Shown here piece by piece: positions 4,819 through 44,191 of a stretch of 64,000 bases of DNA (position 1 is its first letter; each line of letters opens with the position of its first letter). The DNA comes from Actinomadura alba (lineage in GTDB: Bacteria > Actinomycetota > Actinomycetes > Streptosporangiales > Streptosporangiaceae), in the NCBI RefSeq assembly GCF_039530285.1, contig NZ_BAAAOK010000005.1, positions 289,961-353,960 of the forward strand. Reading direction: 5' to 3'. The notes under the pieces were generated by a model, which was not told the origin of the DNA, made no database searches, and worked only from the letters and a program-made list of their open reading frames with translations. The position numbers and the translations under genes are program-made.

Positions 4819-5954
4819 TTGATCTCCTGACCTGCCTTGACGATGTCGGCGTAGAGGTTGTCCCACTTCTTCGGGTCGGCGAGCAGTTCCTGCTCCGGGG
4901 GCGCGATGATCTTGAGGCCGGCCACCGGGTCCTTCTCGGTCGGGATGGCGCCGATCCGGAACGCCTTCTCAAGGATCTTCTGACCCTCGGTGAGCTCCCA
5001 GTCCGCGAAGAGCATCGCCGCGGCGGGGTGGCTCGCGGTCTTCATGAGCGCCACGCCGTTGGGCCGCATCACGATGGGCTGGACGGGTTCTCCCGAAGCG
5101 GGGCGCCAGCTGACCGGGGCGCCCTTGTCCGCCGCCTTGTCGATGGTGTGGCTGTAGGAGGACACGGTCACCGCGAACTGACCGGCCGACAGCAGTTCGC
5201 CCTGTGTGGTGTGTCCTTTGGCGATCTTGGAGTTGCCAGCGATCTTGGTGAGCAGGTCGCGGACCTCCGCCTCGGGCCGGCCCTGCTTCAGGTAGTACTG
5301 GTAGATGCCGGCGAACCAGTCCACGTCGCCGACCTCCATGGAGACCTGGCCCTTCCACTTCGGGTCGGCCAGGTCCTCGAACGATTTCGGCTCCTGCCCC
5401 GGCTTCACCTTGTCGGTGTTCCAGCCGACGACGAAGACGTTGAACCGGGACGCGGTCCAGCCGTTCGCCTGGCCCTCCTTGCGAACCGAATCGCGCAGCT
5501 GACCCTTGTATTCGTGGAACATGCCCTCGGATTGCATGATGTTGAGCTCGCCGGCGTTCGTGTCGACGAAGTCGTTGCCGAGGTAACCGGCCTGCTGCTC
5601 CTGCCTGACGCGCTGGAGCACCGACTCGGAGTTGCCGCGGTAGACGCTCACTTCGATGTCGTAGGTCTCCTCGAACCCTTCGACCAGCTTGTCCATGTCG
5701 GTGTTCGAGGTGTAGATAGCGAGTTTTCCCTCCTTCTCGGCGAGTTCGACGAGCGTCTTGCGCCGCTCCTCACCGGTGAGCCCGTTGATCCGGTCATAGA
5801 CCGGCTGGGCCTTCGCGGCGGCCTGCGCGGCCGCCTTGTTGCCCGCGCCCTTGGCGGACGCGCCGCCCGAGGCGGTCGGCGAGGCGCCGCAGGCCGTGAG
5901 GAGGAGGGCGGTGGCCAGGAGTGCCACCGATCCGAGAGGTGTGTGGTGTCGCAT
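4815..5954 (-). CDS. ABC transporter solute-binding lipoprotein, paralog 2
   Basis: 379 aa ORF; lipobox LLTACGAS; clearly homologous to downstream SBP (e.g. ...TSNTDMDKLVEGFEETYDIEVSVYRGNSESVLQRV / ...TSMTSDVASKVTEAFGDAFDVEVNLYRAGSETVLQRI); GGGAG RBS before ATG. Confidence 0.8.
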   Translation of the reverse strand: MRHHTPLGSVALLATALLLTACGASPTASGGASAKGAGNKAAAQAAAKAQPVYDRINGLTGEERRKTLVELAEKEGKLAIYTSNTDMDKLVEGFEETYDIEVSVYRGNSESVLQRVRQEQQAGYLGNDFVDTNAGELNIMQSEGMFHEYKGQLRDSVRKEGQANGWTASRFNVFVVGWNTDKVKPGQEPKSFEDLADPKWKGQVSMEVGDVDWFAGIYQYYLKQGRPEAEVRDLLTKIAGNSKIAKGHTTQGELLSAGQFAVTVSSYSHTIDKAADKGAPVSWRPASGEPVQPIVMRPNGVALMKTASHPAAAMLFADWELTEGQKILEKAFRIGAIPTEKDPVAGLKIIAPPEQELLADPKKWDNLYADIVKAGQEIK

Positions 5955-28704: not shown

Positions 28705-28769
28705 TTCTGCTTAGGCCGTAGAGTGTCAACGAGAACTCCATCGGTCGCGCGATGCGGGAGGATGGGCCC

Positions 28770-29522
28770 ATGGGCGTCGGCGAGAAGAGTGAGGCGACGG
28801 GCACCTCCCCGTCCTCGGTTTCGGATCTGTTCAGTCCCGTCAGCCTGGGCCGCGTGTCACAGGTCATCGTCGACCAGGTCCGGTTGCTGATGCATCAGGG
28901 CCGGCTCAAGCCCGGAGATCGCCTTCCGAGCGAACGTGACCTGTGCGACCGGTTCGGGGTCAGTCGCGTCACGGTGCGTGAGGCGCTCCGGGTCCTGGAG
29001 GCCGGTGGGCTGGTCGAGATCCGTGTCGGGGCCCGCGGCGGGGCCTTCGTCACCACCCCCTCGCGCGCCCGGCTCGGTGAGGGTCTCGCGGATCTGCTCA
29101 AGCTCAGTCCCCTCACGGCGACCGAGGTCACCGAGGCACGCATGGTCTTCGAACTCGGCATCGTTCCGCTCGTGGTCGAACGCGCGACCGCCGACGACAT
29201 CGCCGAACTCAAGGAGATATGCGCACGGCAGCAGGAGGCGCTGAAGGATTCCTCCTACTCGATGACGCTGTCCGCCGAGTTCCACGTCCGGGTGGCCGCG
29301 TGCACGCACAACGCGGCGATCGAGATGCTGGTGCAGAGCTTCCACGGCCCGCTGCTCATGTCGCTTCAGGAGGCCCAGATCGTCGCCCCGCTGATGGGTC
29401 ACCGCGGCACCGCCGAGCACGGCGAATTCGTCGATGCGGTCGAGCGGGGCGATGTCGAGGCCGCCACCGCCATCATGCGCACGCACCTCCAGCGGACCGC
29501 GGATCGGGTCGCCCAGACGTAG
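28770..29522 (+). CDS. GntR-family transcriptional regulator (FCD), paralog 2
   Basis: ORF 28752..29522; ATG 28770 after GGGAGGATGGG; high identity to 12576..13349 (LFSPVSLGRVSQVIVDQVRLLMHQGRLKPGDRLPSERDLCDRFGVSRVTVREALRVLEAGGLV). Confidence 0.85.
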   Translation: MGVGEKSEATGTSPSSVSDLFSPVSLGRVSQVIVDQVRLLMHQGRLKPGDRLPSERDLCDRFGVSRVTVREALRVLEAGGLVEIRVGARGGAFVTTPSRARLGEGLADLLKLSPLTATEVTEARMVFELGIVPLVVERATADDIAELKEICARQQEALKDSSYSMTLSAEFHVRVAACTHNAAIEMLVQSFHGPLLMSLQEAQIVAPLMGHRGTAEHGEFVDAVERGDVEAATAIMRTHLQRTADRVAQT

Positions 29523-29791: not shown

Positions 29792-31225
29792 ATGCTGCCT
29801 TTAGGCCGGCGCTCCGTACGAGTGCGCTCCACGCTCGTCCTTGCCGCGATGGCGTTGATGTCCACCCTCGCGATCGGCGTCATACTCGACACGCTGATCC
29901 GTACCAACGCGCACGACACCGCTCTCGAGGAGACTCAGCGAGCCGCGATCCAGTGGATCGCCAGAGCACGGGCCGGGAGCGCGCCTCACCCGATCCCCAC
30001 ACCCGGTCCGGTCAAGCTGATCCAGCTCGTGGACAACCAGGGCCGGGTCATCGACGCCAGCGCAGCGGCCGACCACATGCCACCGTTGAGCACCATCCGG
30101 CCCCCGGACGACGACCGGATCGAGAACGTGACCGTGTGCCGGTCCGCGGAAGGTTGCGGCATCGTCACGGCGATCCGCTTCGCGTTGACCGACAAACCCG
30201 GGGACGCCGACCCGCATTACGTCTACGCCGGTGTGGAGGCTCCAAAGCTTCTCGCCTCACACGAACTCGAGCTGTTCATCGGCGCCGGTGTCATCGGCCT
30301 GACCGCGCTCGCGGCCGGGATCAACTGGCGGGTGTCCGGCCGCTGGCTCAACGCGGTGGAGTCGGTCCGGATGCAGGTGTCCACGCTGTCGATGAACAAC
30401 CTGGGCACCCGGTTCGGCCAACCGCGTCAACACGAGCTCGCGATGCTGACCGATACCGCCAACCAGGCCCTCGACCGGCTGGAGAAGGCCGTGCGGCAGG
30501 AACAGCAGTTCGCCTCCGAGGCCTCGCACGAGCTCAGATCACCGGTCGCCGGCCTGCATACCCAGCTGGAAGAAGCCCTGCTGTATCCCGACGACGTCGA
30601 TCCGCGCGAGACCATCCGCACAGCACTCTCAGCGACCGACCGGCTCACTCAGATCATCAACGACCTGCTGGTGCTCGCCCGGCTCCGGGCCGATCCGGCG
30701 CCGCAAGAGACCATCGACCTGGGTGAGCTCGTCATCCAGGAGGCCACGGCCAGGTCCCGGGACGTGCCGGTGACCGCCCATGCCACGTCCAAAGTGCCCG
30801 TCCGCGGCCGGCCGATACAGCTGATCCGAGTGATCGGCAACCTGCTGGACAACGCGCAGCGTCACGCGAACTCCCGGGTGGAGATCACGGCGTACCGGCA
30901 GGACGACCTGGCCGTGGTGGCCGTCACCGACGACGGCCCCGGCATCGCACCTGAGGACCGAGAACGCGTCTTCGAACGCTTCACCCGACTGCCCGACGGA
31001 CAGCGCCGCGATCCAGGCGGCAGCGGACTCGGCCTGGCGATCTCGGCCGACATCGCGCACGCCCACCAGGGATCCCTGACCGTGGAGGACTCACCGCTGG
31101 GTGCCCGATTCGTCCTGCGCCTTCCGCTTGTCGAGTCGGCCGACGGACCCGCCCACCCGGCGACCGACCCGGTCTGTTCCGGCGAGCGGTCGTCCAGCGG
31201 ACGGCCGGCTCAGCGGCGGCCCTGA
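29792..31225 (+). CDS. sensor histidine kinase (two-TM periplasmic-sensing, HAMP-HisKA-HATPase), no adjacent response regulator
   Basis: 477 aa; H-box SHELRSPVAGLHTQLE, N-box LLDNAQRHA, G1 DDGPGI, G2 GGSGLGLAI; preceded by a ~150-nt AT-rich stretch (see findings). Confidence 0.8.
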   Translation: MLPLGRRSVRVRSTLVLAAMALMSTLAIGVILDTLIRTNAHDTALEETQRAAIQWIARARAGSAPHPIPTPGPVKLIQLVDNQGRVIDASAAADHMPPLSTIRPPDDDRIENVTVCRSAEGCGIVTAIRFALTDKPGDADPHYVYAGVEAPKLLASHELELFIGAGVIGLTALAAGINWRVSGRWLNAVESVRMQVSTLSMNNLGTRFGQPRQHELAMLTDTANQALDRLEKAVRQEQQFASEASHELRSPVAGLHTQLEEALLYPDDVDPRETIRTALSATDRLTQIINDLLVLARLRADPAPQETIDLGELVIQEATARSRDVPVTAHATSKVPVRGRPIQLIRVIGNLLDNAQRHANSRVEITAYRQDDLAVVAVTDDGPGIAPEDRERVFERFTRLPDGQRRDPGGSGLGLAISADIAHAHQGSLTVEDSPLGARFVLRLPLVESADGPAHPATDPVCSGERSSSGRPAQRRP

Positions 31226-31228
31226 CGC

Positions 31229-32773
31229 TCACAGCCGGTCGCGCAGATCTTCGCCGGCTGATTCGATCAGGTCGCCGACCTTTGTCGCGGCGGTCGTCCC
31301 GGCGGTCTCCGTTCGCCTGCCGAGCAGCCGGAGCAGCAGATCCTGGGCGGAAGGCCGGCGCTCGGGGTCTTTACTGAGGCACGAGTCGACGAGTTCACGC
31401 AGCGGTGACGCCAGGTCGCCCAGGTCGGGCGGTTCGTGCAGGATGCGATGGAAGATGGCCGGGATGCGATCGGTTCCGAAGGGCGGCCGCCCGGTCGCCG
31501 CATAGACCATGACGCAACCCCAGGCGAAGACGTCGGCGGCCGGTTCGACCCGTTTCTCACTGACCTGCTCGGGCGCCATATACGCCGGTGTCCCGATCGC
31601 ACCGATGGTGAGCGTCGAGGTCGCCTCCTCGAACGCCCGGGCGATGCCGAAGTCGATGACGCGCGGCCCATCGGGCCCGAGCAGCACGTTGCCGGGCTTG
31701 AGATCTCTGTGCACGACGCCCGCTTCGTGAATGGCCGCGAGCGCGGCGGCCGTCGCCACCGCCAGCCGGTGCAGGGCGGGCCCCTGCCGTGCCCCCGTCT
31801 GGGCCACCGTCTGCTGCAGCGACAGGCCGGTCACGTACTCGCTGGCGATGTACGGCGGATTGGCGGACAGATCGGCGTCGACCACCTGGGCGATGCAGAA
31901 GGGGGTCACCCGGCGAGCCGCCGAGAGCTCTCGCGCGAAGCGTTCCAGTACCTGGGACTCAGCGGCCAGTTCATCCCGGAGGACCTTCACCGCCACCCGC
32001 TCGTTCGAGTCGTTCTCACCGAGGTACACGACTCCCTGACCGCCCATGCCCAGGCGCTCGATCAGGCGATAGGGCCCCACGCGTTCCGGATCCCCGATTC
32101 GCAAGGGAGTCCCTGCGGTCACCTCGCCGCGCTGGACGTCGTCTCCCCGTGGCTCACGCCTGCCGTCCAGCAGCATCTTCGCGCGTCTGTCCGCCTCGGA
32201 GCGCATCGTCGCCGCGCGCTGGTCGATCTGGGCGCTGAGCAGCCGCTCACTCGCGCTTTGGATGGCCGCCGGCGGATCGAGCGCCTTCAGCTCCGCCCGG
32301 TTCACCTGGACGCCCCATTTGCCGCCGGCCTGGTCGAGCACGTCCCTCAGCCGGACGTCGATGTCCTCCCGTGAGGACAGCATGCGTTGCAGGTCCATGG
32401 CACCGCCGATCTTCCGCAGGGTGACGATGGTGAGCTGCTCGAGCGCGGCGACGTGGTTGGCGACCTCGTACACCGCGGCCGTGGGGTCGACCACCTGGAA
32501 GTAGACGACCGTTTCGGTGTTCACGACCACGTTGTCCGATGTGGTGACCGGCTGAGGGGGAAAGGCGATGACCTGCTCGCGCAGGTCGACGCGGTAGTAG
32601 ATCTGGTCGGCGAACGGGATGACCATCGAGAGGCCCGCGGTCAGGGTGCGGTGATGCCGTCCGAAGCGCTCGACGATGTGGGCTTTGCTCTGCGGCACGA
32701 CGCGTACGGACCTGTAGAGCAGGAGCGCCCCGAGCGCGGCGACGACCGAGGCGATGACGAGCCCGAGCTCCAT
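31229..32773 (-). CDS. SPFH (stomatin/band-7) domain fused to Hanks-type Ser/Thr protein kinase domain, membrane-anchored
   Basis: 514 aa single frame: N-terminal TM helix, SPFH core (IVERFGRHHRTLTAGLSMVIPFADQIYYRVDLRE...VVYFQVVDP...WGVQVNRAELKALDPP), then kinase subdomains GMGGQGVVY, VAVKVL, HRDLKPGNVLL, DFGIA, GTPAYMAPE, DVFAWG. Confidence 0.75.
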   Translation of the reverse strand: MELGLVIASVVAALGALLLYRSVRVVPQSKAHIVERFGRHHRTLTAGLSMVIPFADQIYYRVDLREQVIAFPPQPVTTSDNVVVNTETVVYFQVVDPTAAVYEVANHVAALEQLTIVTLRKIGGAMDLQRMLSSREDIDVRLRDVLDQAGGKWGVQVNRAELKALDPPAAIQSASERLLSAQIDQRAATMRSEADRRAKMLLDGRREPRGDDVQRGEVTAGTPLRIGDPERVGPYRLIERLGMGGQGVVYLGENDSNERVAVKVLRDELAAESQVLERFARELSAARRVTPFCIAQVVDADLSANPPYIASEYVTGLSLQQTVAQTGARQGPALHRLAVATAAALAAIHEAGVVHRDLKPGNVLLGPDGPRVIDFGIARAFEEATSTLTIGAIGTPAYMAPEQVSEKRVEPAADVFAWGCVMVYAATGRPPFGTDRIPAIFHRILHEPPDLGDLASPLRELVDSCLSKDPERRPSAQDLLLRLLGRRTETAGTTAATKVGDLIESAGEDLRDRL

Positions 32774-32997: not shown

Positions 32998-33840
32998 GTG
33001 ACTCACCACTTCAGAAAACGCGGGATCGGCCTGACCCGCCTCTGCGCCATTGCCGCCACTGTCGTCGCGCTTGCCGCATCCGGCGTGGCGACGACCGTCG
33101 TTTCCCCGCAGCAGCCTGCGCGAGCCGCCGAATCGTCGGGCGGCGGCGCGGTCAGGATGAATCAAATACAGTTCTTGGGCGCCCACAACGCCTATCACCG
33201 GGAAATGCAAGGCGTCGAACTGGCTGAATCGATCAAAATCGACCCCGGCTACCCTTCATGGGGGTTCTATTCGCACGCCTCCATTCCGGACCTGCTCGGC
33301 CGGCAGAACATCCGCTCCGTCGAGCTGGATCTGTTGCCCGACCCGAAAGGCGGGCTCTACCGGCATCCGCTCGCCCGCAAGCGGGCCGGGCTGGGTCCGA
33401 TCGACGATCCGGCCATGGCCGCACCCGGCATGAAGGTGCTTCACGTCGCCGACCAGGACTACAACTCGACCTGCCGGACGCTGGTCTCCTGCATGCAGCA
33501 GGTACGGACGTGGTCGCGCGCCAACCGGCAGCACGTGCCGATCATCTTCCAGCTCGAACTGAAGCAGACGGACGACCGGTGGGAGCGGCTGGGCGGCGCC
33601 GAGAGCCCGCCGTGGGACCCGGCGCTGCTGGACGACATCGACCGTGAGATCCGGTCGGTCTTCAGCGAGACCGAGCTCATCACCGCGGACGACCTACGCC
33701 GGCCCGGCCTCACGCTGGAACAGTCGGTTCTGACGCGCGGCTGGCCGACCCTCGACTCGGCGCGCGGCAAGGTGATGTTCTTCTTCGACAATGGCGGACC
33801 GGGCGCGATCCGTGACAACGACCGCAAGCTGGAACGATAG
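32998..33840 (+). CDS. secreted phospholipase-C-like phosphodiesterase (Ca-dependent PI-PLC-like domain)
   Basis: 280 aa; signal peptide RKRGIGLTRLCAIAATVVALAASGVA; QIQFLGAHNAYH motif; weak SD, GTG start. Confidence 0.45.
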   Translation: MTHHFRKRGIGLTRLCAIAATVVALAASGVATTVVSPQQPARAAESSGGGAVRMNQIQFLGAHNAYHREMQGVELAESIKIDPGYPSWGFYSHASIPDLLGRQNIRSVELDLLPDPKGGLYRHPLARKRAGLGPIDDPAMAAPGMKVLHVADQDYNSTCRTLVSCMQQVRTWSRANRQHVPIIFQLELKQTDDRWERLGGAESPPWDPALLDDIDREIRSVFSETELITADDLRRPGLTLEQSVLTRGWPTLDSARGKVMFFFDNGGPGAIRDNDRKLER

Positions 33841-34126: not shown

Positions 34127-34633
34127 GTGGCAGATCGCGCGGATTATCAGGACTTCGTCGCCGCAGGGTGGCCCCGCCTGCTGCGGCTGGCGTTCCTGCT
34201 GACCCAGGACTGGGCGGCGGCTGAGGATCTCGTGCAGACCGGCCTGGTCAAGGCCTGGTTCGCCTGGCCGCGCATCCGGGGTGAGCCGGAACCCTATGTC
34301 CGGAAGATCATCGTCAATACCCAGACGTCGTGGCTCCGGCGCACTTGGCGCAGCAGGGAGATCACCTCCGCCGCCGTACCCGATCAGGCGGAGGGCCCCG
34401 ACGTCTTCGGCGAGACGAACGACCGGGACGCGGTGTGGGCGGCGTTGCGGCGGCTGCCGCCTCGCCAGCGGGCCGTCCTGGTACTGCGGTACTTCGAGGA
34501 TCTCTCTGAGGCGCAGGTCGCCAAGCTGCTCGGCTGCTCGGTCGGAACGGTCAAGAGCCAGTCCAGCAAGGCGCTGGCGACTCTCCGCATCGACGAGGTC
34601 TTCGTGACCACGATGACGCACGGAAGGGACTGA
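34127..34633 (+). CDS. ECF (sigma-70 family, SigE-like) RNA polymerase sigma factor
   Basis: 168 aa; region 2 AEDLVQTGLVKAW, region 4 HTH VLVLRYFEDLSEAQVAKLLGCSVGTVKSQ; GTG start after GAAGGGG. Confidence 0.85.
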   Translation: MADRADYQDFVAAGWPRLLRLAFLLTQDWAAAEDLVQTGLVKAWFAWPRIRGEPEPYVRKIIVNTQTSWLRRTWRSREITSAAVPDQAEGPDVFGETNDRDAVWAALRRLPPRQRAVLVLRYFEDLSEAQVAKLLGCSVGTVKSQSSKALATLRIDEVFVTTMTHGRD

Positions 34634-34639
34634 CCACAG

Positions 34640-35479
34640 ATGAACACCGATGAGTTCCGGAACCTGCTGAACGACCGCACCGAGCGGGCGCACCTGCGCC
34701 CCGTGCCGCACGACGACCTGCGCGATCGGATCCGGGTGGCCCGGATGCGCAGATTCGTCGCGGTGACGGGCTCGGGGGTGGCGGTGGCCGTCGGTACGGC
34801 GGTCATCATGTCGGTTCCCGAAAGTGATCACGCCGCCACCGTGGCGACCGGACGGACCACGCCGACGGCCGAGCGGACGCTGTCGCCACAGGAGATGCGA
34901 GACATCGTCGCCGAGGTCCAGGCGAACCAGGACCGCCTCGCCCTCGAGAGCAGGTACCGCTGGAACCGCCTGCCGGGAAGAAGCGATCTCGCCTGGCCGG
35001 ACGAGCGCAACGCCCGGCTCGAGATTCGCCCCGGACAGCGGAGACTCGGTCTCTACGCCACCTGCGACGGCTTCGAATCCAATGTCAACGTGACCATCAC
35101 GCTGACCGGCGCCACCTTCCCTCCGGAGTTCAGCGACGGCGACGGCAGAAGCACCGGCTTCAACTGCTTCAAAGGCGGCCTGTACGAACTGACGATCCCC
35201 CGGTCCACGAAAAAGATAACGGTGACGGTCGTCGCAAAGCAGTACGCCGCCCAGTCGCACCCCGAATGGCCCCCGAGCCGGCCACGGACCTGGTCCTTCG
35301 GCTTCTACGAGAAGGGCGCGAAAGTACCGGCCGATCATCCGGCGACCGATGGCCGCTCCGGCCTGCCCGGCCAGGTCGTCAGCGTTGACCACCGCGAGGC
35401 CACGGAGGCCACCAGGCGTCTCACCCGGCGGCTCCAGGAACGGGCCGCGGCCTCCCGACCGAGCGGGACACCGAACTGA
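34640..35479 (+). CDS. putative anti-sigma factor (single-pass membrane protein)
   Basis: 279 aa immediately downstream of ECF sigma; TM helix VAVTGSGVAVAVGTAVIM at ~aa 40-58; GGAAGGGA SD. Confidence 0.45.
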   Translation: MNTDEFRNLLNDRTERAHLRPVPHDDLRDRIRVARMRRFVAVTGSGVAVAVGTAVIMSVPESDHAATVATGRTTPTAERTLSPQEMRDIVAEVQANQDRLALESRYRWNRLPGRSDLAWPDERNARLEIRPGQRRLGLYATCDGFESNVNVTITLTGATFPPEFSDGDGRSTGFNCFKGGLYELTIPRSTKKITVTVVAKQYAAQSHPEWPPSRPRTWSFGFYEKGAKVPADHPATDGRSGLPGQVVSVDHREATEATRRLTRRLQERAAASRPSGTPN

Positions 35480-35966: not shown

Positions 35967-37049
35967 TCAGGTTCGGCGGACGAGAAGGGAGTACTGCTCG
36001 GCGGACAGCCCGTAGGTCCAACCGGCGGCGGCGATCGGATCTTCGAAGAAGCCCGGCACGGTCAGCCCGTACCGGCGGCGACGCCCATCACGTTCGACGG
36101 ACCCGTTGACCGCGAGGAGCACTCTGGTCTCCTTGCGCATGTCGTAGAGCAGCAGTTCCGAGCCGGGGTTGCCCGGGTCCGGCGCGGAGGCGACCAGCCG
36201 CAGCCCGGCCTGGTCGATGTAGGAGGCCCAGCCGATGTTCTCGATCGCGCATCGCCTGACCTCGACGTTCACCTCCCGCGCGATCCGCCGCGCACTCGGA
36301 TCCGTGACCACCCAGGAGGGCACCCGTGTCCCGTGCCAGGCGTACACGTCCCAACCGTCCGCGTAACGCACCGCCGGGCCGTCCGCACAGTGCAGCCGCA
36401 CTTCGCCGTCATCGCCCCACACCTCGATGCGCACGGCGACGGGCCGCTCGGAGACGACGCACACGCCTTCTCGCGGCCACCACGGGCCGGCCGACCGGGC
36501 CACCTGCGCCCACAGTTCGAACTGCCGGGTCTGCGCGGCGGTGAAGACCACACCGGCCGCCCTGCGTAGGGCGTCATAGTGGGCCACCCAGGAGACGCAC
36601 TGCGTCGCGTACCAGGCCATCGCCCGATGGAACTGCGAGTCGTGCGCGCCCTCGAGCGACAGAAGCAGTGACCTGTCGGAGGAACTCCGCAGCCATCCGT
36701 GTACCTCCCGGGTGACCAGCTGTTCCATCGGCCGATGGCCCCATCTGAGCCCGGTGTCGATCTGTCTGCACAGGTCTCTCATCAGCGCGCTGAACCGACG
36801 CGGCAACGGCCATTCGGCCATCCGCTCGACCGTCTCGGAGGGTCGTAGGCGCACCCCCGGCGGGACGGTCGTCAGGGCGGCGACCGGTGACGAGACCCAG
36901 TGGAAACGCGGTGGCGCAAGCCCGATCAGGCGGTACAGGCCCGAGATGGCGGCTTCGGCGGATCTGCGATCGGCGGGCAGCGTCGACAACGCCCGGCCCA
37001 GCCATTCTTCGCGGATTTCGGCAGCTTCCCGCTGCGCGAGAGCGCTCAC
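35967..37049 (-). CDS. hypothetical protein (conserved actinobacterial DUF-type, Trp-rich)
   Basis: 360 aa ORF with protein-like composition (…VEVRRCAIENIGWASYIDQAGLRLVASAPDPGNPGSELLLYDMRKETRVLLAVNGSVERDGRRRRYGLTVP…); no motif recognised. Confidence 0.5.
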   Translation of the reverse strand: MSALAQREAAEIREEWLGRALSTLPADRRSAEAAISGLYRLIGLAPPRFHWVSSPVAALTTVPPGVRLRPSETVERMAEWPLPRRFSALMRDLCRQIDTGLRWGHRPMEQLVTREVHGWLRSSSDRSLLLSLEGAHDSQFHRAMAWYATQCVSWVAHYDALRRAAGVVFTAAQTRQFELWAQVARSAGPWWPREGVCVVSERPVAVRIEVWGDDGEVRLHCADGPAVRYADGWDVYAWHGTRVPSWVVTDPSARRIAREVNVEVRRCAIENIGWASYIDQAGLRLVASAPDPGNPGSELLLYDMRKETRVLLAVNGSVERDGRRRRYGLTVPGFFEDPIAAAGWTYGLSAEQYSLLVRRT

Positions 37050-39555: not shown

Positions 39556-40101
39556 TCAGGCTCGCGCGCGCAGTACGCGCATGGCCGCCAGAACCTCGTC
39601 GCGGTTGCCGGCGGCCTTCATCCAGGCCGGCAGCCGCTCGAGCATGCTGCCCGAACCCGTCCACGGGTGGCGCTCACGCAGACGTGCGGTCACGTACCGC
39701 TCAAGAAGCTCCAGATGAGCGGCGTTGTAGGCCCACAGCACCCGCCCGCCACAGCACGGACGCCGTAGCCACAGCGGCAGCCCGAAGAACGGATCGTCCG
39801 GCCCCGTCAGGCGGGGAACGGCCACCGAACCGCCGCCGAAGAAGTACACGTCGCGGTCGCCGGGACGCATTGGGCGGGGCGACCATTCGTCGGTGTGCCC
39901 GCAACCCGGGCAGCTCAGCCGGTGCGGCGCGGTGAGCAGGGCGACGGCGTACCGCTGATCTTCACGATGGTCGGGATGGACGACGACCACCGCCCGGCCG
40001 GCGCAACGAGGGCAGCGTACGAGGATCTCCTGGGCGAACCGCCACAACCGCGACCCGGGATCGCGGAAGCGGTCGTCGCCCGTCTCCCCTGCCTCGCCCA
40101 T
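39556..40101 (-). CDS. hypothetical zinc-ribbon protein
   Basis: 181 aa; CxxC...CxxC (CPRCAG...CPGCGH) plus RPCCGGR; no further assignment. Confidence 0.45.
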   Translation of the reverse strand: MGEAGETGDDRFRDPGSRLWRFAQEILVRCPRCAGRAVVVVHPDHREDQRYAVALLTAPHRLSCPGCGHTDEWSPRPMRPGDRDVYFFGGGSVAVPRLTGPDDPFFGLPLWLRRPCCGGRVLWAYNAAHLELLERYVTARLRERHPWTGSGSMLERLPAWMKAAGNRDEVLAAMRVLRARA

Positions 40102-40486
40102 GCCTCATGATCGTAGCCTCGGCCGCCCGCACTGCCAGCGGCAAGTCGATGCCCAGCCGCTCTTTCGTGCGGATACAAGACAGTCCCACTCAGGCGATCA
40201 TCACAGCACGGCGTCAACTGGACACAATCGGCAATGAACGGTCGGTCAAGCCCTTGGTTTGTGCAGTGAGGCGCCGGTACGCTCTGAGGCGCTGTAAATC
40301 TAAATGCCGCACGTTGTGAGGGAAGTCGGCTGACACCGGTCCGCCGGATCCCACTCTGTGCAATGGGCGCCGGACTCGTACACGTTAGGTGACCTGGGTT
40401 TATTCGCAATTGGCGCCACCGTGGCGGCCCTGCGGCCACGACCCTAGGTCCTTGCCTTTCACCGGCGCGGGGTGAGGAGGAGACCA

Positions 40487-40618
40487 GTGACCGAACCTGA
40501 GCCCGAGATCGAGGGTGTCGAGGAGATCGACGTGCCCGAGGTTCCGGAGCCCGAGGACCCCGAGGAGGGCGTCATCGATCCCGGCGACACCCATGTCGAG
40601 GGGGTCGACGCGAAATGA
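40487..40618 (+). CDS. small acidic peptide (43 aa, pI very low)
   Basis: GTG after GGTGAGGAGGAG SD: MTEPEPEIEGVEEIDVPEVPEPEDPEEGVIDPGDTHVEGVDAK; stop TGA overlaps next ATG (ATGA); below ORF-track size cutoff. Confidence 0.3.
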   Translation: MTEPEPEIEGVEEIDVPEVPEPEDPEEGVIDPGDTHVEGVDAK

Positions 40619-40719
40619 AACTGGAGAAGCACTCGGTGTTCGGCTGGCCCACGAGCGGCGCGGGTTCCACCTCGCCGCGCAACGGAATCGCCGTTCAGCA
40701 CAATTCCCAGGGTAAATCA
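40615..40719 (+). pseudogene. 5' fragment (~35 codons) of a PGRP/amidase_2 peptidoglycan amidase gene, truncated by the downstream Endo VII gene
   Basis: MKLEKHSVFGWPTSGAGSTSPRNGIAVQHNSQG matches N-terminus of intact amidase at 41293 (MKIEKRSVFGWPSSGAGHAAPKNGIAIHYDGSNQG); frame then degenerates. Confidence 0.4.
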
Positions 40720-40733
40720 ACTAAAATTGAGCC

Positions 40734-41303
40734 ATGGAAATGCCCCTCACAACTAAGCGTTGTGTCGCGTGTGAATCAGAGAAGCCCCTCTCTGATTTCC
40801 ATCGCAGGTCGGTCTCTCCTGACGGCAGGCACTATTACTGCAAGTCGTGCCGCAGGGACATGCGGTTAAAGCGCTATGAGCCACACCGGAAGAAGCCGAT
40901 CCTGCCGGACGGTCTGCGGCGCTGTGGCGGGTGCATGACCGTGAAGCCGATCGCCGAGTTCGCAAACGGTGGGCGCGGCGGCTGCAAGGACTGCGCCGCC
41001 GCCCGGCAGCTCAAGTATCTGTACGGAATCACCGTCGCGGAGTACGAGGCGCTGCTGGCTGCGCAAGGTGGCCAGTGTGGGATCTGCGGCGTGGGTGAAT
41101 GCCTGAGCGGCCAGAGGTTCTCGGTTGACCACGATCATTCGTGTTGCCCCAAGCGCTCGTGCGGCAAGTGCGTTCGAGGGCTCCTGTGTCGGCACTGCAA
41201 CGCCGCCCTTGGCCTGTTCCGAGACTCGCCAGAACTGCTGGCGCGCGCGCAATCGTGGCTCCGGCCCAATGGAGTTATGAAGGGACCGGGTAATGAAGAT
41301 TGA
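40734..41303 (+). CDS. phage T4 endonuclease VII-family nuclease (free-standing HNH-like/homing-type)
   Basis: 189 aa; Endo VII signature FSVDHDHSCCPKRSCGKCVRGLLCRHCNAALGLF plus N-terminal Cys4 (CVACE...CKSCR); local GC drops to ~55%. Confidence 0.75.
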   Translation: MEMPLTTKRCVACESEKPLSDFHRRSVSPDGRHYYCKSCRRDMRLKRYEPHRKKPILPDGLRRCGGCMTVKPIAEFANGGRGGCKDCAAARQLKYLYGITVAEYEALLAAQGGQCGICGVGECLSGQRFSVDHDHSCCPKRSCGKCVRGLLCRHCNAALGLFRDSPELLARAQSWLRPNGVMKGPGNED

Positions 41304-42033
41304 GAAGCGGTCGGTGTTTGGTTGGCCATCCAGCGGTGCTGGCCATGCTGCGCCGAAGAATGGGATTGCCATTCACTACGACGGGTCGAATCAGGGGCTG
41401 GCGAAGAAGAGTCATTCCGCGTGCCGTACCTACTGGGCCCGAACCCGCAAGTTCCACATGGGCCCGAGCCGGAGATGGGCCGATGTCGGATACAGCTTTG
41501 CGGTCTGTCCACATGGAATCGTCCTCGAGGGCCGCGGGCTCAACAAGGTCCAGGCCGCGCAGCCCGGCGGAAATGCCACCTGGTACTCGGTGACGTTCAT
41601 GAGCGGCCCGTCCGAGTCGCCGACGGCCGCTCAGATCAACGCGTTCCGGGAGTTGCGGGCCTGGCTCAGAGGCAAGGGCGTCAAGGCGGCACTGAAACCG
41701 CACAGTGCTTTCATCTCGACGTCGTGCTGCGGGGACATCCTCCGCCGTCTGATCAGCAACGGAACCCTCGCCTCGACCAAACCTTTCGAAGAGGAGCTGG
41801 ACATGGATGCCCAGGACGTGTTCAAGGCCGTATGGGAGCGGGACTCCATCCCCGCCCCTCCCGGTGGCCCGAGCGGCCCGAACTGGAAGGGCGCGTCCTT
41901 CTTGACGAACACCTACCGCGACATGGCGAAGGCCTCCGAGGTCAAGGCCCTACGCACCGAGGTCAGCGAGTTGAAGTCCGAGCTCGCCGAAATCAAGGAA
42001 CTGCTCAGCGCCGCCCTGCCCCCCAAGGAGTGA
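41293..42033 (+). CDS. N-acetylmuramoyl-L-alanine amidase (PGRP/amidase_2 domain) with C-terminal coiled coil
   Basis: 246 aa; Zn-ligand/conserved positions IAIHYDGS, WADVGYSFAV, KPHSAFISTSCCGD align with T7 lysozyme motifs; C-terminal EVKALRTEVSELKSELAEIKELL. Confidence 0.7.
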   Translation: MKIEKRSVFGWPSSGAGHAAPKNGIAIHYDGSNQGLAKKSHSACRTYWARTRKFHMGPSRRWADVGYSFAVCPHGIVLEGRGLNKVQAAQPGGNATWYSVTFMSGPSESPTAAQINAFRELRAWLRGKGVKAALKPHSAFISTSCCGDILRRLISNGTLASTKPFEEELDMDAQDVFKAVWERDSIPAPPGGPSGPNWKGASFLTNTYRDMAKASEVKALRTEVSELKSELAEIKELLSAALPPKE

Positions 42034-42377
42034 CGAGTCCCGGCGGCGGCGTTGTCGAGCTGATCCGCACCAGCGTGCCGCACACGGCATCGCGGCGTGC
42101 CGGCCTCGCCGCCGCCTGACACCTCTCGGGCCCGATCCACGCCGACGCCTTGAGGCGCCAGGGGCCCGGACTCGGTGAAATACATGCGCGATTCTCAGGA
42201 CATCTCGAATCACTGTTTACTGTGGCCCCAAATAAGACAATCAATAAGAGTGACCGTTCATCCACAGGACGCACGGCCTCAAGGGTCTATCGTGAAAGCG
42301 GGTCGATTGTCCTGAGTGGAACAGGGGCTGCTCGGTATAAGCGGTGAGCCTGCCCAGTACCGGTGAGGAGGCGCCCG

Positions 42378-43163
42378 GTGCGCCCGGAGATCGTTATTGG
42401 GATTCTGTCCGTCATCGCCACCATCTCAGCGGCGCTGATCCAGCGCAGTTGGAACTGGCGGTCCAGGCGATTTCCGCGCAGCCGTGAGGCGCTGACCTTC
42501 GGTGCGATTCAGGAGAGCGGATCGTTCAGCCTCGACGAGGTCGCGAAAGTTCTCGATCTGCGGAACAGTCCGGGATCGCCGGGGCAGGCCGTGCTGAACG
42601 ACACCTACCTCGTCCGGCGCCAGTCCGAGAAGGGAAACGGACTGGTCTCGATCTACAGCACCAGCGGGGAACTGGAGGGCGACTGCCTCAGCCATCCGCA
42701 CAATCACACCTGGGGCCCGTACGGTTCTGCGCACATGAGGGTCAACCGCGCGATGGCCGTCGACCTCTCCCATCTCGCCGATCAGAGCGTCACGCGAGTC
42801 GTCCACCAGGTCGTCTTCACGGGCGCCTACGACAACACGCCGACGGAGAACTTCGAGACCCATATCGAGCGGCCGACCCGCGCGCTGGTGTTCATCCTGC
42901 TGTTCTCGGCGGACCGTCCGTGCACCAGCGTCACCGGGCACCTTCAGGTCGGCAGGCGGCAACGAACGCCGACGGATCGGGAGAGAGGCCCCGTCCTGCT
43001 TCGACAGGGCACGATCGCCTATTGGCGCATCGTTCCCAACAAAGGTGAGTGGCTTCCGGAGGAGGCCAATTATCGGATCGAATGGAACTGGCGGTCAAGG
43101 CGGCTCGGCTCCGAAGACGATACCGGAGAATCGGCGGCCGACGGTGTGCAGGGGGCGCAGTGA
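42378..43163 (+). CDS. hypothetical membrane-anchored protein
   Basis: GTG 42378 after GGTGAGGAGG; N-terminal TM IVIGILSVIATISAALI; motif WNWRSRR occurs near both termini. Confidence 0.45.
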   Translation: MRPEIVIGILSVIATISAALIQRSWNWRSRRFPRSREALTFGAIQESGSFSLDEVAKVLDLRNSPGSPGQAVLNDTYLVRRQSEKGNGLVSIYSTSGELEGDCLSHPHNHTWGPYGSAHMRVNRAMAVDLSHLADQSVTRVVHQVVFTGAYDNTPTENFETHIERPTRALVFILLFSADRPCTSVTGHLQVGRRQRTPTDRERGPVLLRQGTIAYWRIVPNKGEWLPEEANYRIEWNWRSRRLGSEDDTGESAADGVQGAQ

Positions 43164-44191
43164 TCGGATCGTCGACAGCGGGGCGAGCGGACGGCGTGGC
43201 ATCAGCCGATCAGATCGATTTCTGGCGGCCGGCTCGGAAATTCCCGGAGCACTACCCGGGCGAATGCCCGCTTGCGGACTACCTTTTGTGGAATCGGCAC
43301 GTTCACCCGCTCGAGTACAGCGACACGGCCGGATTCGTCATCGGCGGCAACGAGCATCGGTCACTGGACGACCTGCTGGCCGCACTGGAACTTCCCGGCC
43401 TGGCGGAACGCACTCCCGTCCTCGCCTATGGGGCCAACCGGAATCCGGCGACGCTGCATGTCAAGCTCCTGAACTACGGTTACCGATCACCCAACGGCAC
43501 GGATTGGTGCGTCCCGGTGTTGCGTGGAGAACTGCACGGTGCGGACGTCGCCGTCGCGGGGCTGCACGGTCACGGCTATCTCTACGGAGAACTACTGCTG
43601 AACACCGAGTACAGCCGTGACGCGGTGCTACAGGCGCGCATCTGCCTGGTCGACGCCGACCAACTCCGGGTTCTCAATGACAGCGAGGAGATCAGAGAAG
43701 GCAGCTACCATCTGGCGCGGATCCCCCGGACCCGGCTCGTCAGCACGGGAGCGCCGGTGCAGACGCTGGGATACGTCGCCAACGCCCACACCTGGTCGTC
43801 GCCCGTCCACGGGACACCGATCGGATACACCTCCGTCCAGGCCACCGGCCGCAGGTACCCGTCGATGACCGCGACCGACGGCCTGGCCCATGCGCTCGAC
43901 GCGCTCGACATCCGGAGGCAGGTCAGCGCACTGTCCGGCATCGCCGACGACGACCGGATGGCGGCCGAGCTGGCAAAGTACCTGAACGGCCAGTGGTGGT
44001 ACCGGTTCCAGACCGGTCAGGCACCCATCGCCGGCTACGAGAGCATCCTGGAAATCTTCCGCGCCGCGATGGCCGACAGCAGCCTGCCCGTCCGCACCTA
44101 TGACCACCTCGCCGAACTGGGTCAGATCATTCCTGTCGAAGCCGCCTACTCCCCCGACAACCTGCTTGGCCGGGTCCAGCCGAACGACTAG
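43160..44191 (+). CDS. hypothetical protein with N-terminal gamma-glutamylcyclotransferase-like (AIG2/GGCT) domain
   Basis: GTG overlapping upstream stop (GTGA); VLAYGANRNPATLHVKL resembles YGSN motif of GGCT fold; C-terminal ~170 aa unknown. Confidence 0.45.
   Translation: MIGSSTAGRADGVASADQIDFWRPARKFPEHYPGECPLADYLLWNRHVHPLEYSDTAGFVIGGNEHRSLDDLLAALELPGLAERTPVLAYGANRNPATLHVKLLNYGYRSPNGTDWCVPVLRGELHGADVAVAGLHGHGYLYGELLLNTEYSRDAVLQARICLVDADQLRVLNDSEEIREGSYHLARIPRTRLVSTGAPVQTLGYVANAHTWSSPVHGTPIGYTSVQATGRRYPSMTATDGLAHALDALDIRRQVSALSGIADDDRMAAELAKYLNGQWWYRFQTGQAPIAGYESILEIFRAAMADSSLPVRTYDHLAELGQIIPVEAAYSPDNLLGRVQPND

Follow-up and report, generated by a model that had tools for sequence, protein, structure and literature searches.

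A stomatin-type SPFH domain joined to a PknB-like Ser/Thr kinase in a predicted membrane protein of Actinomadura alba

The role of SPFH/flotillin-type scaffolds in bacteria is unsettled, and the evidence for the best-known idea, that they organise membrane signalling kinases, is indirect. Work cited in PMC10434171 implicates SPFH proteins in activating membrane kinases in Bacillus subtilis, where the scaffolds FloA and FloT are functionally coupled to a membrane signalling kinase, a full flotillin and a histidine kinase being separate proteins. In E. coli QmcA (YbbK) and the stomatins (SPFH1 "p-stomatin"; 8z5g, 3bk6, 9wmj), an N-terminal anchor is followed by an SPFH core, and the C-terminus of QmcA is reported to be cytoplasmic (PMC10434171). 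SPFH rings and domes are built through SPFH1/2, CC1, CC2, and a C-terminal strand (PMC13041759, PMC12624060), and hetero-oligomeric rings are common (PMC12624060). E. coli QmcA cut to its transmembrane (TM) and SPFH parts is still found in the membrane, yet its punctate foci are lost (PMC10434171). An operon with NfeD is typical, though not universal (229 of 353 SPFH1 members; PMC2636767).

For bacterial Hanks-type kinases, the canonical layout is an N-terminal kinase, a C-terminal TM segment, and an extracellular sensor; in the bacterial STK Atlas preprint, a TM segment precedes the kinase in just 1 of 42 families, and SPFH is nowhere mentioned (10.1101/2025.01.12.632604). Here we describe a gene in a 64-kb window of the A. 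alba genome (the window being the whole stretch of DNA that was analysed) whose product differs from both groups. Unlike FloA/FloT, it is a shortened stomatin covalently joined to a Ser/Thr kinase.

Domain anatomy and the reading frame

The features of the locus are as follows, with the neighbouring gene given last.

31229..32773, minus strand: whole SPFH-Ser/Thr kinase fusion gene (ORF of 514 aa plus stop; Pfam Band_7 and Pkinase)
32708..32770, minus strand: N-terminal TM helix, residues 2-22 (AF2 helix, pLDDT >94; hydropathy)
32276..32707, minus strand: SPFH (Band 7) core of stomatin/QmcA type, residues 23-166 (Pfam PF01145; AF2 pLDDT ~95)
32168..32269, minus strand: CC1 stub (first coiled-coil helix), residues 169-202 (single AF2 helix)
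32108..32167, minus strand: disordered linker, residues 203-222 (pLDDT <50 for 208-219)
31325..32107, minus strand: complete Hanks-type kinase with its N-terminal peptide, residues 223-483 (Pfam PF00069; confident AF2 kinase fold)
31985-31987, minus strand: K263, key kinase residue
31703-31705, minus strand: catalytic D357, key kinase residue
Residues 374-376, minus strand: DFG motif, within the kinase
31607..31615, minus strand: activation-loop T387 and T389 (T-L-T), candidate autophosphorylation sites (alignment to PknB)
31229..31324, minus strand: C-terminal tail, residues 484-514, then the stop codon (AF2 helix 494-513, pLDDT 72-83)
29792..31225, plus strand: two-TM orphan sensor histidine kinase (Pfam HisKA and HATPase_c), judged to lie outside the system

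A preliminary description of this DNA had read a TM helix, an SPFH core, and a complete Hanks kinase in a single frame. Both ORFs were recovered exactly as given there (514 aa for the fusion, 477 aa for the histidine kinase), and a Pfam scan placed the two domains together in one polypeptide: Band_7 spans residues 25-195 (E 1.6e-32; 113.4 bits, cut-off 23.6) and matches profile positions 2-175 of 176, and Pkinase spans residues 235-480 (E 6.9e-45; 153.9 bits, cut-off 31.7). The concern that a stop codon between two genes had been lost was also addressed. Across the SPFH/kinase junction, GC3 stays at 0.77-1.00 in a single frame, while the other two frames are stop-rich; within the gene, GC3 is higher in the SPFH half. 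The identical 514-aa product was called on three contigs, one of them in an NCBI assembly and another in a Logan re-assembly of SRR11658057, and the joined frame is kept in other genera. An assembly or frameshift artefact was rejected on the basis of these independent assemblies, the uniform in-frame GC3, and the cross-genus conservation.

The TM helix is the sole hydrophobic segment of the protein (mean Kyte-Doolittle hydropathy 2.3), with no K/R preceding it and three among the 15 residues that follow, and the predicted orientation is N-terminus out and C-terminus in. A similar but weaker pattern was observed in 14 other fusions (0-3 K/R after the helix). Like that of QmcA and the stomatins, the SPFH core probably faces the cytoplasm. 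Hydropathy windows gave neither a second TM segment nor a sensor domain on the kinase's C-terminal side, so that the layout is indeed reversed relative to the usual bacterial Hanks kinases, as had been proposed, with the kinase C-terminal and the only TM segment at residues 2-22. In its "anchor first, kinase last" order, which is eukaryote-like, the fusion is a rare case among bacteria. What the preliminary description gave as a linker of ~40 aa consists of a 34-residue helix (169-202, the start of CC1) and ~20 disordered residues. The disordered linker has gap-rich, unconserved alignment columns, its length varies among homologs, and the spacing from SPFH to kinase differs greatly between lineages. 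The AF2 model is of a monomer with a pTM of 0.62, from which inter-domain contacts are not reliable.

The closest solved structure to the SPFH half is E. coli QmcA (8z5g, E 3.7e-39), with weaker matches to PH stomatin (7e-27), human stomatin (3e-23), and HflK (~1e-6). By these matches, the SPFH half is of the stomatin/QmcA type and not of the HflK/C type. The alignment covers QmcA residues 9-203 of 305 and ends there; what follows in stand-alone stomatins, namely the rest of CC1, CC2, and the C-terminal cap strand, is missing from the fusions. Stand-alone relatives are 300-390 aa long and continue through AEGE-type repeats into a C-terminal "...LLAYQYLQxLPxIAxG..NKVWIIPSE" region, which is missing in the fusion. 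The SPFH core had been called complete, and it is; as a scaffold it is partial, lacking the C-terminal coiled-coil and cap region that closes stomatin domes. In contrast to QmcA and the stomatins, the fusion ends ~34 residues into CC1, has a kinase in the place of the cap, and has no NfeD operon partner. NfeD lies directly upstream in 78 of the 80 stand-alone stomatin relatives listed in our genome scan; all 80 loci listed are stand-alone stomatins, and the species-level frequency of fusions is not derivable from them. Pfam and tblastn found no NfeD gene in the 64-kb window or at seven other fusion loci. An SPFH-only word-index search returned stand-alone stomatins only and missed the fusions themselves, making it unusable for counting the architecture.

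Kinase half, distribution, and selection

The closest solved structures to the kinase half are Mycobacterium tuberculosis PknB and PknA (E ~1e-35). The kinase motifs quoted in the preliminary description were all found and are not degenerate in A. alba. In an alignment of eight fusion homologs, only 42-62% identical to one another, the catalytic residues are kept: G242/G244/G247, K263, E282, H355-R356-D357, N362, and D374-F375-G376 are invariant in all eight, as are T387, T389, A400-P401-E402, D414, and R473. The counterparts of T387 and T389 in an alignment with PknB are the threonines of its activation-loop T-Q-T, the phospho-acceptors T171 and T173. As in the PknB/PknA receptor kinases, the fusion has a full catalytic core, an RD-type HRD motif, and an activation-loop Thr-x-Thr. 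Judged from its sequence, the A. alba kinase half is an intact PknB-like Hanks catalytic apparatus. It differs from PknB/PknA-type kinases in having its anchor at the N-terminus and in lacking both a C-terminal TM segment and a PASTA or other extracellular sensor. Receptor-type kinases of Actinomadura and Spirillospora are ~65% identical to it, and their N-terminal "PL..DP..VGPYRL" peptide is retained in the A. alba protein. Where the tail of the fusion ends, these ordinary relatives instead have a TM segment and an extracellular domain.

About 27 distinct fusion proteins were found. Their only sources are Streptomyces, Kitasatospora, Actinomadura, or metagenome and read-archive assemblies, and none has more than a generic annotation. 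No description of an SPFH/Band_7-kinase architecture was found in the literature searched, in keeping with the initial view of it as rare and uncharacterised; in the two papers where all of these terms occur, they stand in unconnected contexts. In the kinase tree, A. alba groups with P0002 (97% bootstrap), and the pair falls within Streptosporangiales receptor-type kinases (74%). The fusions of Streptomyces and Kitasatospora stand apart, in a clade of their own (86%) within another subfamily. The two groups of fusion kinases were monophyletic in 0 of 200 bootstraps, and a single origin of the fusion was rejected for the kinase half. A further fusion, P0224, which served as the outgroup, appears by its motifs to have a third kinase type. 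Because at least two subfamilies supplied the kinase halves, the tree indicates that the fusion arose more than once or that its kinase was exchanged. The SPFH-half tree has low bootstraps, with all fusions monophyletic in 0 of 200 replicates, and thus does not decide between a single and multiple origins of the SPFH halves.

Within groups, the kinase half gave dN/dS values of 0.18-0.32 and the SPFH half values of 0.32-0.55, all of which come from a simple Nei-Gojobori calculation on GC-biased and partly saturated sequences and are indicative only. At that level, they point to purifying selection on both halves. When the same gene pairs are compared, synonymous divergence is far lower in the SPFH half than in the kinase half (e.g., 0.29 vs 1.09). 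Among the relatives, P0194, P0198, and P0273 have degenerate kinase motifs, and P0202 and P0203 are truncated, so that the architecture is easily lost.

A proposed SPFH-anchored kinase

The explanation that we favour, and to which as a whole we give an even chance, is that of an SPFH-anchored, cytoplasm-facing kinase that originated as a graft onto a stomatin and is activated by clustering-driven trans-autophosphorylation. The fusion gene would be functional and monocistronic, and its product a single-pass membrane protein with its entire soluble part in the cytoplasm. The TM helix and the stomatin-type SPFH core would keep the protein on the inner membrane face, with the CC1 stub and the flexible linker tethering the PknB-like kinase. 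The origin may lie in a graft of the complete cytoplasmic part of a receptor-type kinase (N-terminal peptide, kinase domain, and juxtamembrane segment, leaving out its own TM segment and extracellular sensor) behind a duplicated stomatin, which would have been without its distal coiled coil, cap, and NfeD partner.

PknB-type kinases are activated via dimerisation-driven trans-autophosphorylation. We infer how the fusion may cluster, autophosphorylate, reach its substrates, and receive its input. Lateral SPFH-SPFH and CC1 contacts could cluster the fusion with itself or with the cell's putative stand-alone stomatin, which would raise the local kinase concentration and lead to trans-autophosphorylation at T387/T389. 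The active kinase would then phosphorylate membrane-proximal cytoplasmic substrates. As there is no extracellular domain, the input would be the state of the membrane or of the SPFH assembly and not a ligand. Since QmcA reduced to its TM and SPFH parts loses its foci, and since the fusion is without CC2 and the cap, the SPFH stub alone may not cluster.

The neighbouring histidine kinase and other readings

The preliminary description had joined the fusion and the adjacent histidine kinase into a "hybrid membrane signalling node". This would make the two one signalling unit, in which, for example, the Hanks kinase phosphorylates the histidine kinase or both share a membrane microdomain. Several of the underlying observations were borne out. 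The stops of the two genes are exactly 3 nt apart (TGA CGC TCA, 31223-31231), as had been claimed, and both proteins are membrane-bound, the histidine kinase having hydrophobic windows near residues 13 and 160 and an H-box HELRSP at His246. No Response_reg gene was found by Pfam within ±10 kb of the locus, and tblastn with PhoB, NarL, and CheY found no receiver domain in the whole 64 kb, in line with the original reading of an orphan. A precedent is offered by the B. subtilis flotillins, which support a sensor kinase according to work cited in PMC10434171. However, the genes are convergent and thus not co-transcribed. No histidine kinase was present beside the fusion at any of seven other fusion loci, that of the closest homolog (61% identity) included, making the adjacency specific to A. 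alba. Conversely, neither an adjacent response regulator nor the fusion was present at the loci of the histidine kinase's three closest relatives (60-83% identity), although one of them has a lone receiver gene ~4 kb away; being an orphan is therefore a trait of that histidine kinase lineage, which belongs to a very large Streptosporangiales paralog family. With adjacency conserved in neither direction, a coupling was rejected as unsupported. We consider such a unit highly improbable, and the histidine kinase appears to be an unrelated, coincidental neighbour. Across the window and the seven other fusion loci, there was no conserved neighbour gene hinting at a substrate or pathway. A search for a continuation of the PI-PLC gene in another frame found nothing obvious.

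Three further readings concern the fusion itself. It could be a minor subunit that does not self-assemble but enters the ring of the cell's stand-alone stomatin (with or without NfeD), its kinase hanging on the cytoplasmic dome and phosphorylating the clients or subunits of the assembly. The absence of the cap-forming region from the fusions would fit such a role, as would the commonness of hetero-oligomeric SPFH rings (PMC12624060). The SPFH half of P0003, a Streptomyces fusion, is 88% identical to a stand-alone-type stomatin, and one assembly, of S. olivochromogenes A53, has a fusion in addition to an nfeD-stomatin operon. With the nearest stand-alone stomatins found, however, the A. alba SPFH half shares only 57-59% identity. 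Gene conversion against a stomatin paralog could account for the low synonymous divergence of the SPFH half, but stronger codon bias, given its higher GC3, could do so equally well, and we regard co-assembly as rather unlikely. A single-gene abortive-infection or stress kinase, in the spirit of Stk2 or PD-T4-6 and set off by membrane perturbation from phage attack or toxins, would account for the sporadic distribution, the variable and accessory-looking loci, and the frequency of degenerate and truncated copies. P0224 lies directly downstream of a Trypco1 and trypsin-STAND-WD40 system, P0007 adjoins an RNA-ligase/kinase repair cluster, and the kinase half strongly matches the PADLOC PD-T4-6 and mad6 models. 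These matches, though, are confined to residues 229-498, which take in the kinase half and the beginning of the tail, and reflect a similarity that we judged common to Hanks kinases in general; the SPFH half has no PADLOC match, no defence partner is conserved, and the A. alba kinase is as close to ordinary receptor-type kinases of related genera as described above. We hold a role in defence to be improbable. Decidedly improbable, in our view, is a neutral or decaying accident, in which two genes recombined by chance into a product with no specific function. Extreme rarity, a patchy distribution, and several pseudokinase-like or truncated relatives speak for it, but the kinase tree has the fusion formed with different kinase subfamilies at least twice, the catalytic residues are invariant despite the divergence of the proteins, and dN/dS is well below 1 in both halves.

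To return to the SPFH-anchored kinase, a natural and recurrent fusion of a stomatin with a predicted active Ser/Thr kinase offers a direct handle on the scaffold-kinase idea. It raises the questions of whether the SPFH part drives clustering and activation, which substrates are phosphorylated, and whether the corresponding receptor kinases of Streptomyces and Actinomadura have stand-alone stomatins as interaction partners. The practical limits are the tiny family and a genomic context that gives no pathway clue. A broader and rather doubtful extension is that actinomycetes use their stomatin-type SPFH assemblies as general platforms for activating receptor-type Hanks kinases, with the fusion as their "Rosetta stone". 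If so, the ligand-binding ectodomain would have been replaced by the scaffold, the kinase would read the cytoplasmic membrane face, in its physical or assembly state, instead of an extracellular ligand, and the presence of at least two kinase subfamilies on the same N-terminal module would reflect selection for the coupling.

One relative has a different N-terminal module. P0208, from a Logan assembly, has a kinase within the Streptomyces SPFH-fusion clade (86% bootstrap) and the same "WLPxPVRTM" tail, and its N-terminal module can likewise be read as a membrane- or oligomer-scaffold type, but this N-terminus is DivIVA-like, by motif alone (FGHAGYDQGEVDAFLDEVE).

Integrity and predicted structure of the fusion

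Both genes of the preliminary description are present in the window, and their stop codons lie 3 nt apart (TGA CGC TCA), as it had claimed:

29792..31225, plus strand, sensor histidine kinase (HisKA and HATPase_c in Pfam)
31229..32773, minus strand, SPFH–kinase fusion of 514 aa (hereafter, the fusion)

The proposal that the SPFH and kinase domains share a single polypeptide was borne out by two Pfam matches, one to Band_7 over residues 25-195 (E 1.6e-32) and one to Pkinase over residues 235-480 (E 6.9e-45). Across the SPFH–kinase junction, GC3 is 0.77-1.00 in one frame and the remaining two frames are stop-rich. Three contigs, one of them from a Logan re-assembly of SRR11658057, yield the identical 514-aa product, and the joined frame is kept in other genera. 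Given these three observations, a lost stop codon or mis-assembly is ruled out. The A. alba copy is fully intact, and the protein on JABVEC010000044 (GCA_014323705.1), with 100% identity to this product, is labelled by NCBI as "protein kinase domain-containing protein" and nothing more.

The fusion was modelled with AlphaFold2 from a 97-sequence alignment (mean pLDDT 89), which gave the following features:

Residues 2-22, TM helix
Residues 23-166, SPFH core
Residues 169-202, single 34-residue helix
Residues 208-219, disordered stretch (pLDDT <50)
Residues ~223-483, complete kinase fold
Residues 382-392, activation loop, with low confidence as usual
Residues 494-513, C-terminal helix

No further hydrophobic segments were found in the fusion beyond the TM helix. 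There is no K or R before this helix and there are three within the 15 residues after it, an asymmetry that recurs, more weakly, in 14 other fusions. From this pattern and the kinase's need for ATP, we infer an N-out, C-in topology, with the kinase and SPFH core probably facing the cytoplasm. The N-terminal half has its best sequence match in E. coli QmcA (E 3.7e-39; PDB 8z5g, a deposition of 26 chains), whose C-terminus is reported to be cytoplasmic (PMC10434171), and its similarity to HflK (E about 1e-6) is far below that to stomatins. For the kinase half, the best matches are M. tuberculosis PknB and PknA (E about 1e-35). The catalytic set, previously described as complete, held up on alignment, with every Hanks catalytic residue present and invariant in eight fusion proteins. 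In the activation loop, T387 and T389 line up with the T-Q-T of PknB, whose two threonines there are the phospho-acceptors T171/T173. The profile matches and the model show an intact protein that joins a single membrane anchor and a stomatin-type core to a PknB-like kinase with an activation-loop threonine pair.

The stand-alone relatives of the SPFH half, which have no kinase, are 290-380 aa long and continue after the core with long AEGE-type coiled-coil repeats, followed by a conserved C-terminal "...LLAYQYLQxLPxIAxG..NKVWIIPSE" region. In solved stomatin domes, the wall is formed by CC1, and the cap by CC2 and the C-terminal strand (PMC13041759; PMC12624060). The A. alba alignment to QmcA ends at QmcA residue 203 of 305; therefore, what remains is the SPFH core that forms the ring and the start of CC1, whereas everything that closes the dome in stomatins is gone. 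A one-genome-per-species scan, with the SPFH halves of seven fusions as queries, returned only stand-alone stomatins among its best 80 loci; these were 300-390 aa long, and no kinase was fused in frame or encoded within 3 kb of them. NfeD was directly upstream in 78 of these 80, and was absent from the window and from every fusion locus examined.

Rarity, origin and constraint

Within a 5.8-billion-protein collection, only 8 clusters matched the fusion over its full length with both domains; the other matches were kinase-only. Eight further homologs (P0191, P0194, P0198, P0199, P0202, P0203, P0224, and P0273) came from an exhaustive HMMER profile search of 1.84 billion representatives, whose other high scorers were tandem-kinase or kinase-only proteins. 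With a local HMM for each half, 27 distinct proteins in the collected set were found to carry both. The named sources are several Streptomyces species, Kitasatospora, and A. alba, while the remainder are metagenome or Logan contigs. Annotations are generic ("SPFH domain-containing protein", "protein kinase", and once "secreted protein"), and the JGI automatic annotation gives both COG functions. No published description of the architecture was found in a literature search. The word "kinase" is absent from a 2009 survey of prokaryotic SPFH proteins, and the 2025 bacterial STK Atlas preprint leaves SPFH unmentioned and reports, for just 1 of 42 families, a TM segment that precedes the kinase (10.1101/2025.01.12.632604). 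We regard the fusion as two well-known modules in a rare, recurrent, and unstudied combination.

The "secreted protein" label is the GenBank entry for P0003, the fusion of S. bingchenggensis BCW-1 (CP002047), probably because its N-terminal TM helix was mistaken for a signal peptide. Its gene is about 78-79.6 kb from the chromosome end, on the far arm of the 11.9-Mb record, a position that fits an accessory gene. Some members of 309-326 aa in the clusters of the homologs P0003, P0007, and P0200 are annotated as kinase-only (about 310 aa), although a sister record for the same genome has the full fusion.

Between the A. alba and Streptomyces fusions, identity is 50-61% in the SPFH half and only 43-46% in the kinase half; against ordinary Actinomadura and Spirillospora kinases of the receptor type, the A. 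alba kinase half reaches about 65%. A bootstrapped neighbour-joining tree of the kinase domains (200 replicates, P0224 as outgroup) grouped A. alba with the homolog P0002 (97%) and placed this pair within the receptor kinases of Streptosporangiales (74%). A separate clade (86%), within another subfamily marked by a "WLPPxV" tail, comprised the Streptomyces/Kitasatospora fusions, and monophyly of the two fusion kinase groups was observed in 0 of 200 replicates. P0224, being the outgroup, was judged by its motifs, and its kinase appears to be of a third type. The junction position also varies by lineage, with the kinase HMM match starting at residue 193 in P0224 and 306 in P0191. Because the kinase groups are separate and the junction is shifted, either the architecture has at least two origins or its kinase module was swapped. 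In each case, a receptor kinase contributed its entire cytoplasmic part, its TM segment and ectodomain being absent. Bootstraps in the SPFH-half tree were low, with all fusions monophyletic in 0 of 200 replicates; in S. bingchenggensis, the SPFH half of the fusion has 88% identity over 202 residues to a stand-alone-type stomatin.

One 374-aa protein from a Logan contig, P0208, has, judged by eye, a DivIVA-like N-terminal motif (FGHAGYDQGEVDAFLDEVE) in place of SPFH. Its kinase groups with those of the Streptomyces SPFH fusions, whose "WLPxPVRTM" tail it shares, which suggests that this kinase lineage may accept different N-terminal scaffold modules.

Judged from its coding sequences, the fusion is shown to be a selectively maintained protein, with within-group dN/dS of 0.18-0.32 in the kinase half and 0.32-0.55 in the SPFH half (crude Nei-Gojobori estimates on GC-biased sequences). 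Some relatives are clearly decaying: P0194 (DFG to GFA), P0198 (HRD to HLD, with a G-loop insertion), and P0273 ("VHGNLGPD", "DFS") look like pseudokinases, and P0202 and P0203 are truncated, with internal deletions or frameshifts. Gene pairs from four Streptomyces fusion loci (L004, L005, L006, and L007) had a much lower dS in the SPFH half than in the kinase half (0.29 vs 1.09 for P0003-P0007), a difference that gene conversion with a stomatin paralog of the stand-alone type could explain, as could a stronger codon bias alone.

The histidine kinase and other neighbours

It had been proposed that the fusion and the histidine kinase form a hybrid signalling node. The two genes are convergent and are therefore not co-transcribed. 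At the seven other fusion loci, no histidine kinase was found beside the fusion, and their neighbourhoods have nothing in common, either with the window or among themselves. The A. alba histidine kinase is one member of a very large paralog family in the Streptosporangiales. Among its relatives whose context could be retrieved, the three closest (60-83% identity) had neither an adjacent response regulator nor a fusion gene. Given the convergence and the absence of the pairing at the other loci examined for either gene, the node is without comparative support. Thus, the fusion of the preliminary description is confirmed, but its association with the histidine kinase is not; their adjacency is best read as coincidental, and the orphan status of the histidine kinase as a property of its own lineage. 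The A. alba gene is preceded by a GntR/FCD regulator (window 28752-29522), and in Actinomadura sp. HBU206391 a relative with 60% identity comes after a 64-aa FCD fragment (5394-5588 of locus L013), which hints at an ancestral GntR–histidine kinase pairing that decayed in one lineage.

Beyond the fusion, the window contains:

32998-33840, plus strand, PI-PLC-like Ca2+-dependent gene, divergent from the fusion
34127-34633, plus strand, ECF-type sigma factor gene
34640-35479, plus strand, 279-aa ORF with no Pfam match, 6 nt past the sigma factor gene
35967-37049, minus strand, DUF6745 gene, downstream of the sigma factor pair
about 40734-41303, Endonuclease_7 gene
about 41293-42033, Amidase_2 gene

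The PF16670 match of the PI-PLC-like gene covers only positions 1-217 of 329, and the gene ends soon after "FFFDNGGPG", with no obvious continuation in other frames; it may be truncated or a short variant. The 279-aa ORF is probably the anti-sigma factor of the ECF-type sigma. The last two genes coincide with a GC dip (0.63-0.65 at about 40000-44000, vs about 0.69-0.72 elsewhere), a patch about 8 kb from the fusion gene that looks like a horizontally acquired region or prophage remnant.

Possible modes of action

The SPFH core and CC1 stub would gather copies of the fusion on the inner membrane face, where clustering would allow trans-autophosphorylation and kinase activation. The input would then be the state of the membrane or scaffold, not an extracellular ligand. 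A serious rival is that the fusion inserts into the ring of the cell's stand-alone stomatin. We retain it because the cap region is absent from the fusion, and QmcA cut to its TM and SPFH parts no longer localises to puncta (PMC10434171). The fusion might also act in defence or conflict, a reading with weak support; the variable fusion loci, PADLOC matches confined to the kinase half, and one STAND-system neighbour directly upstream of P0224 in S. olivochromogenes (locus L010, 2885-7521) would be consistent with it. This neighbour comprises a Trypco1 gene and a 1432-aa trypsin-nSTAND1-WD40 gene, of the NTP-dependent conflict-system type. In L006 and L007, WhiJ-like trios (HTH_31/DUF5753, DUF397, and HATPase_c_2) occur close to the fusion, as does a single HATPase_c_2 gene in locus L003.
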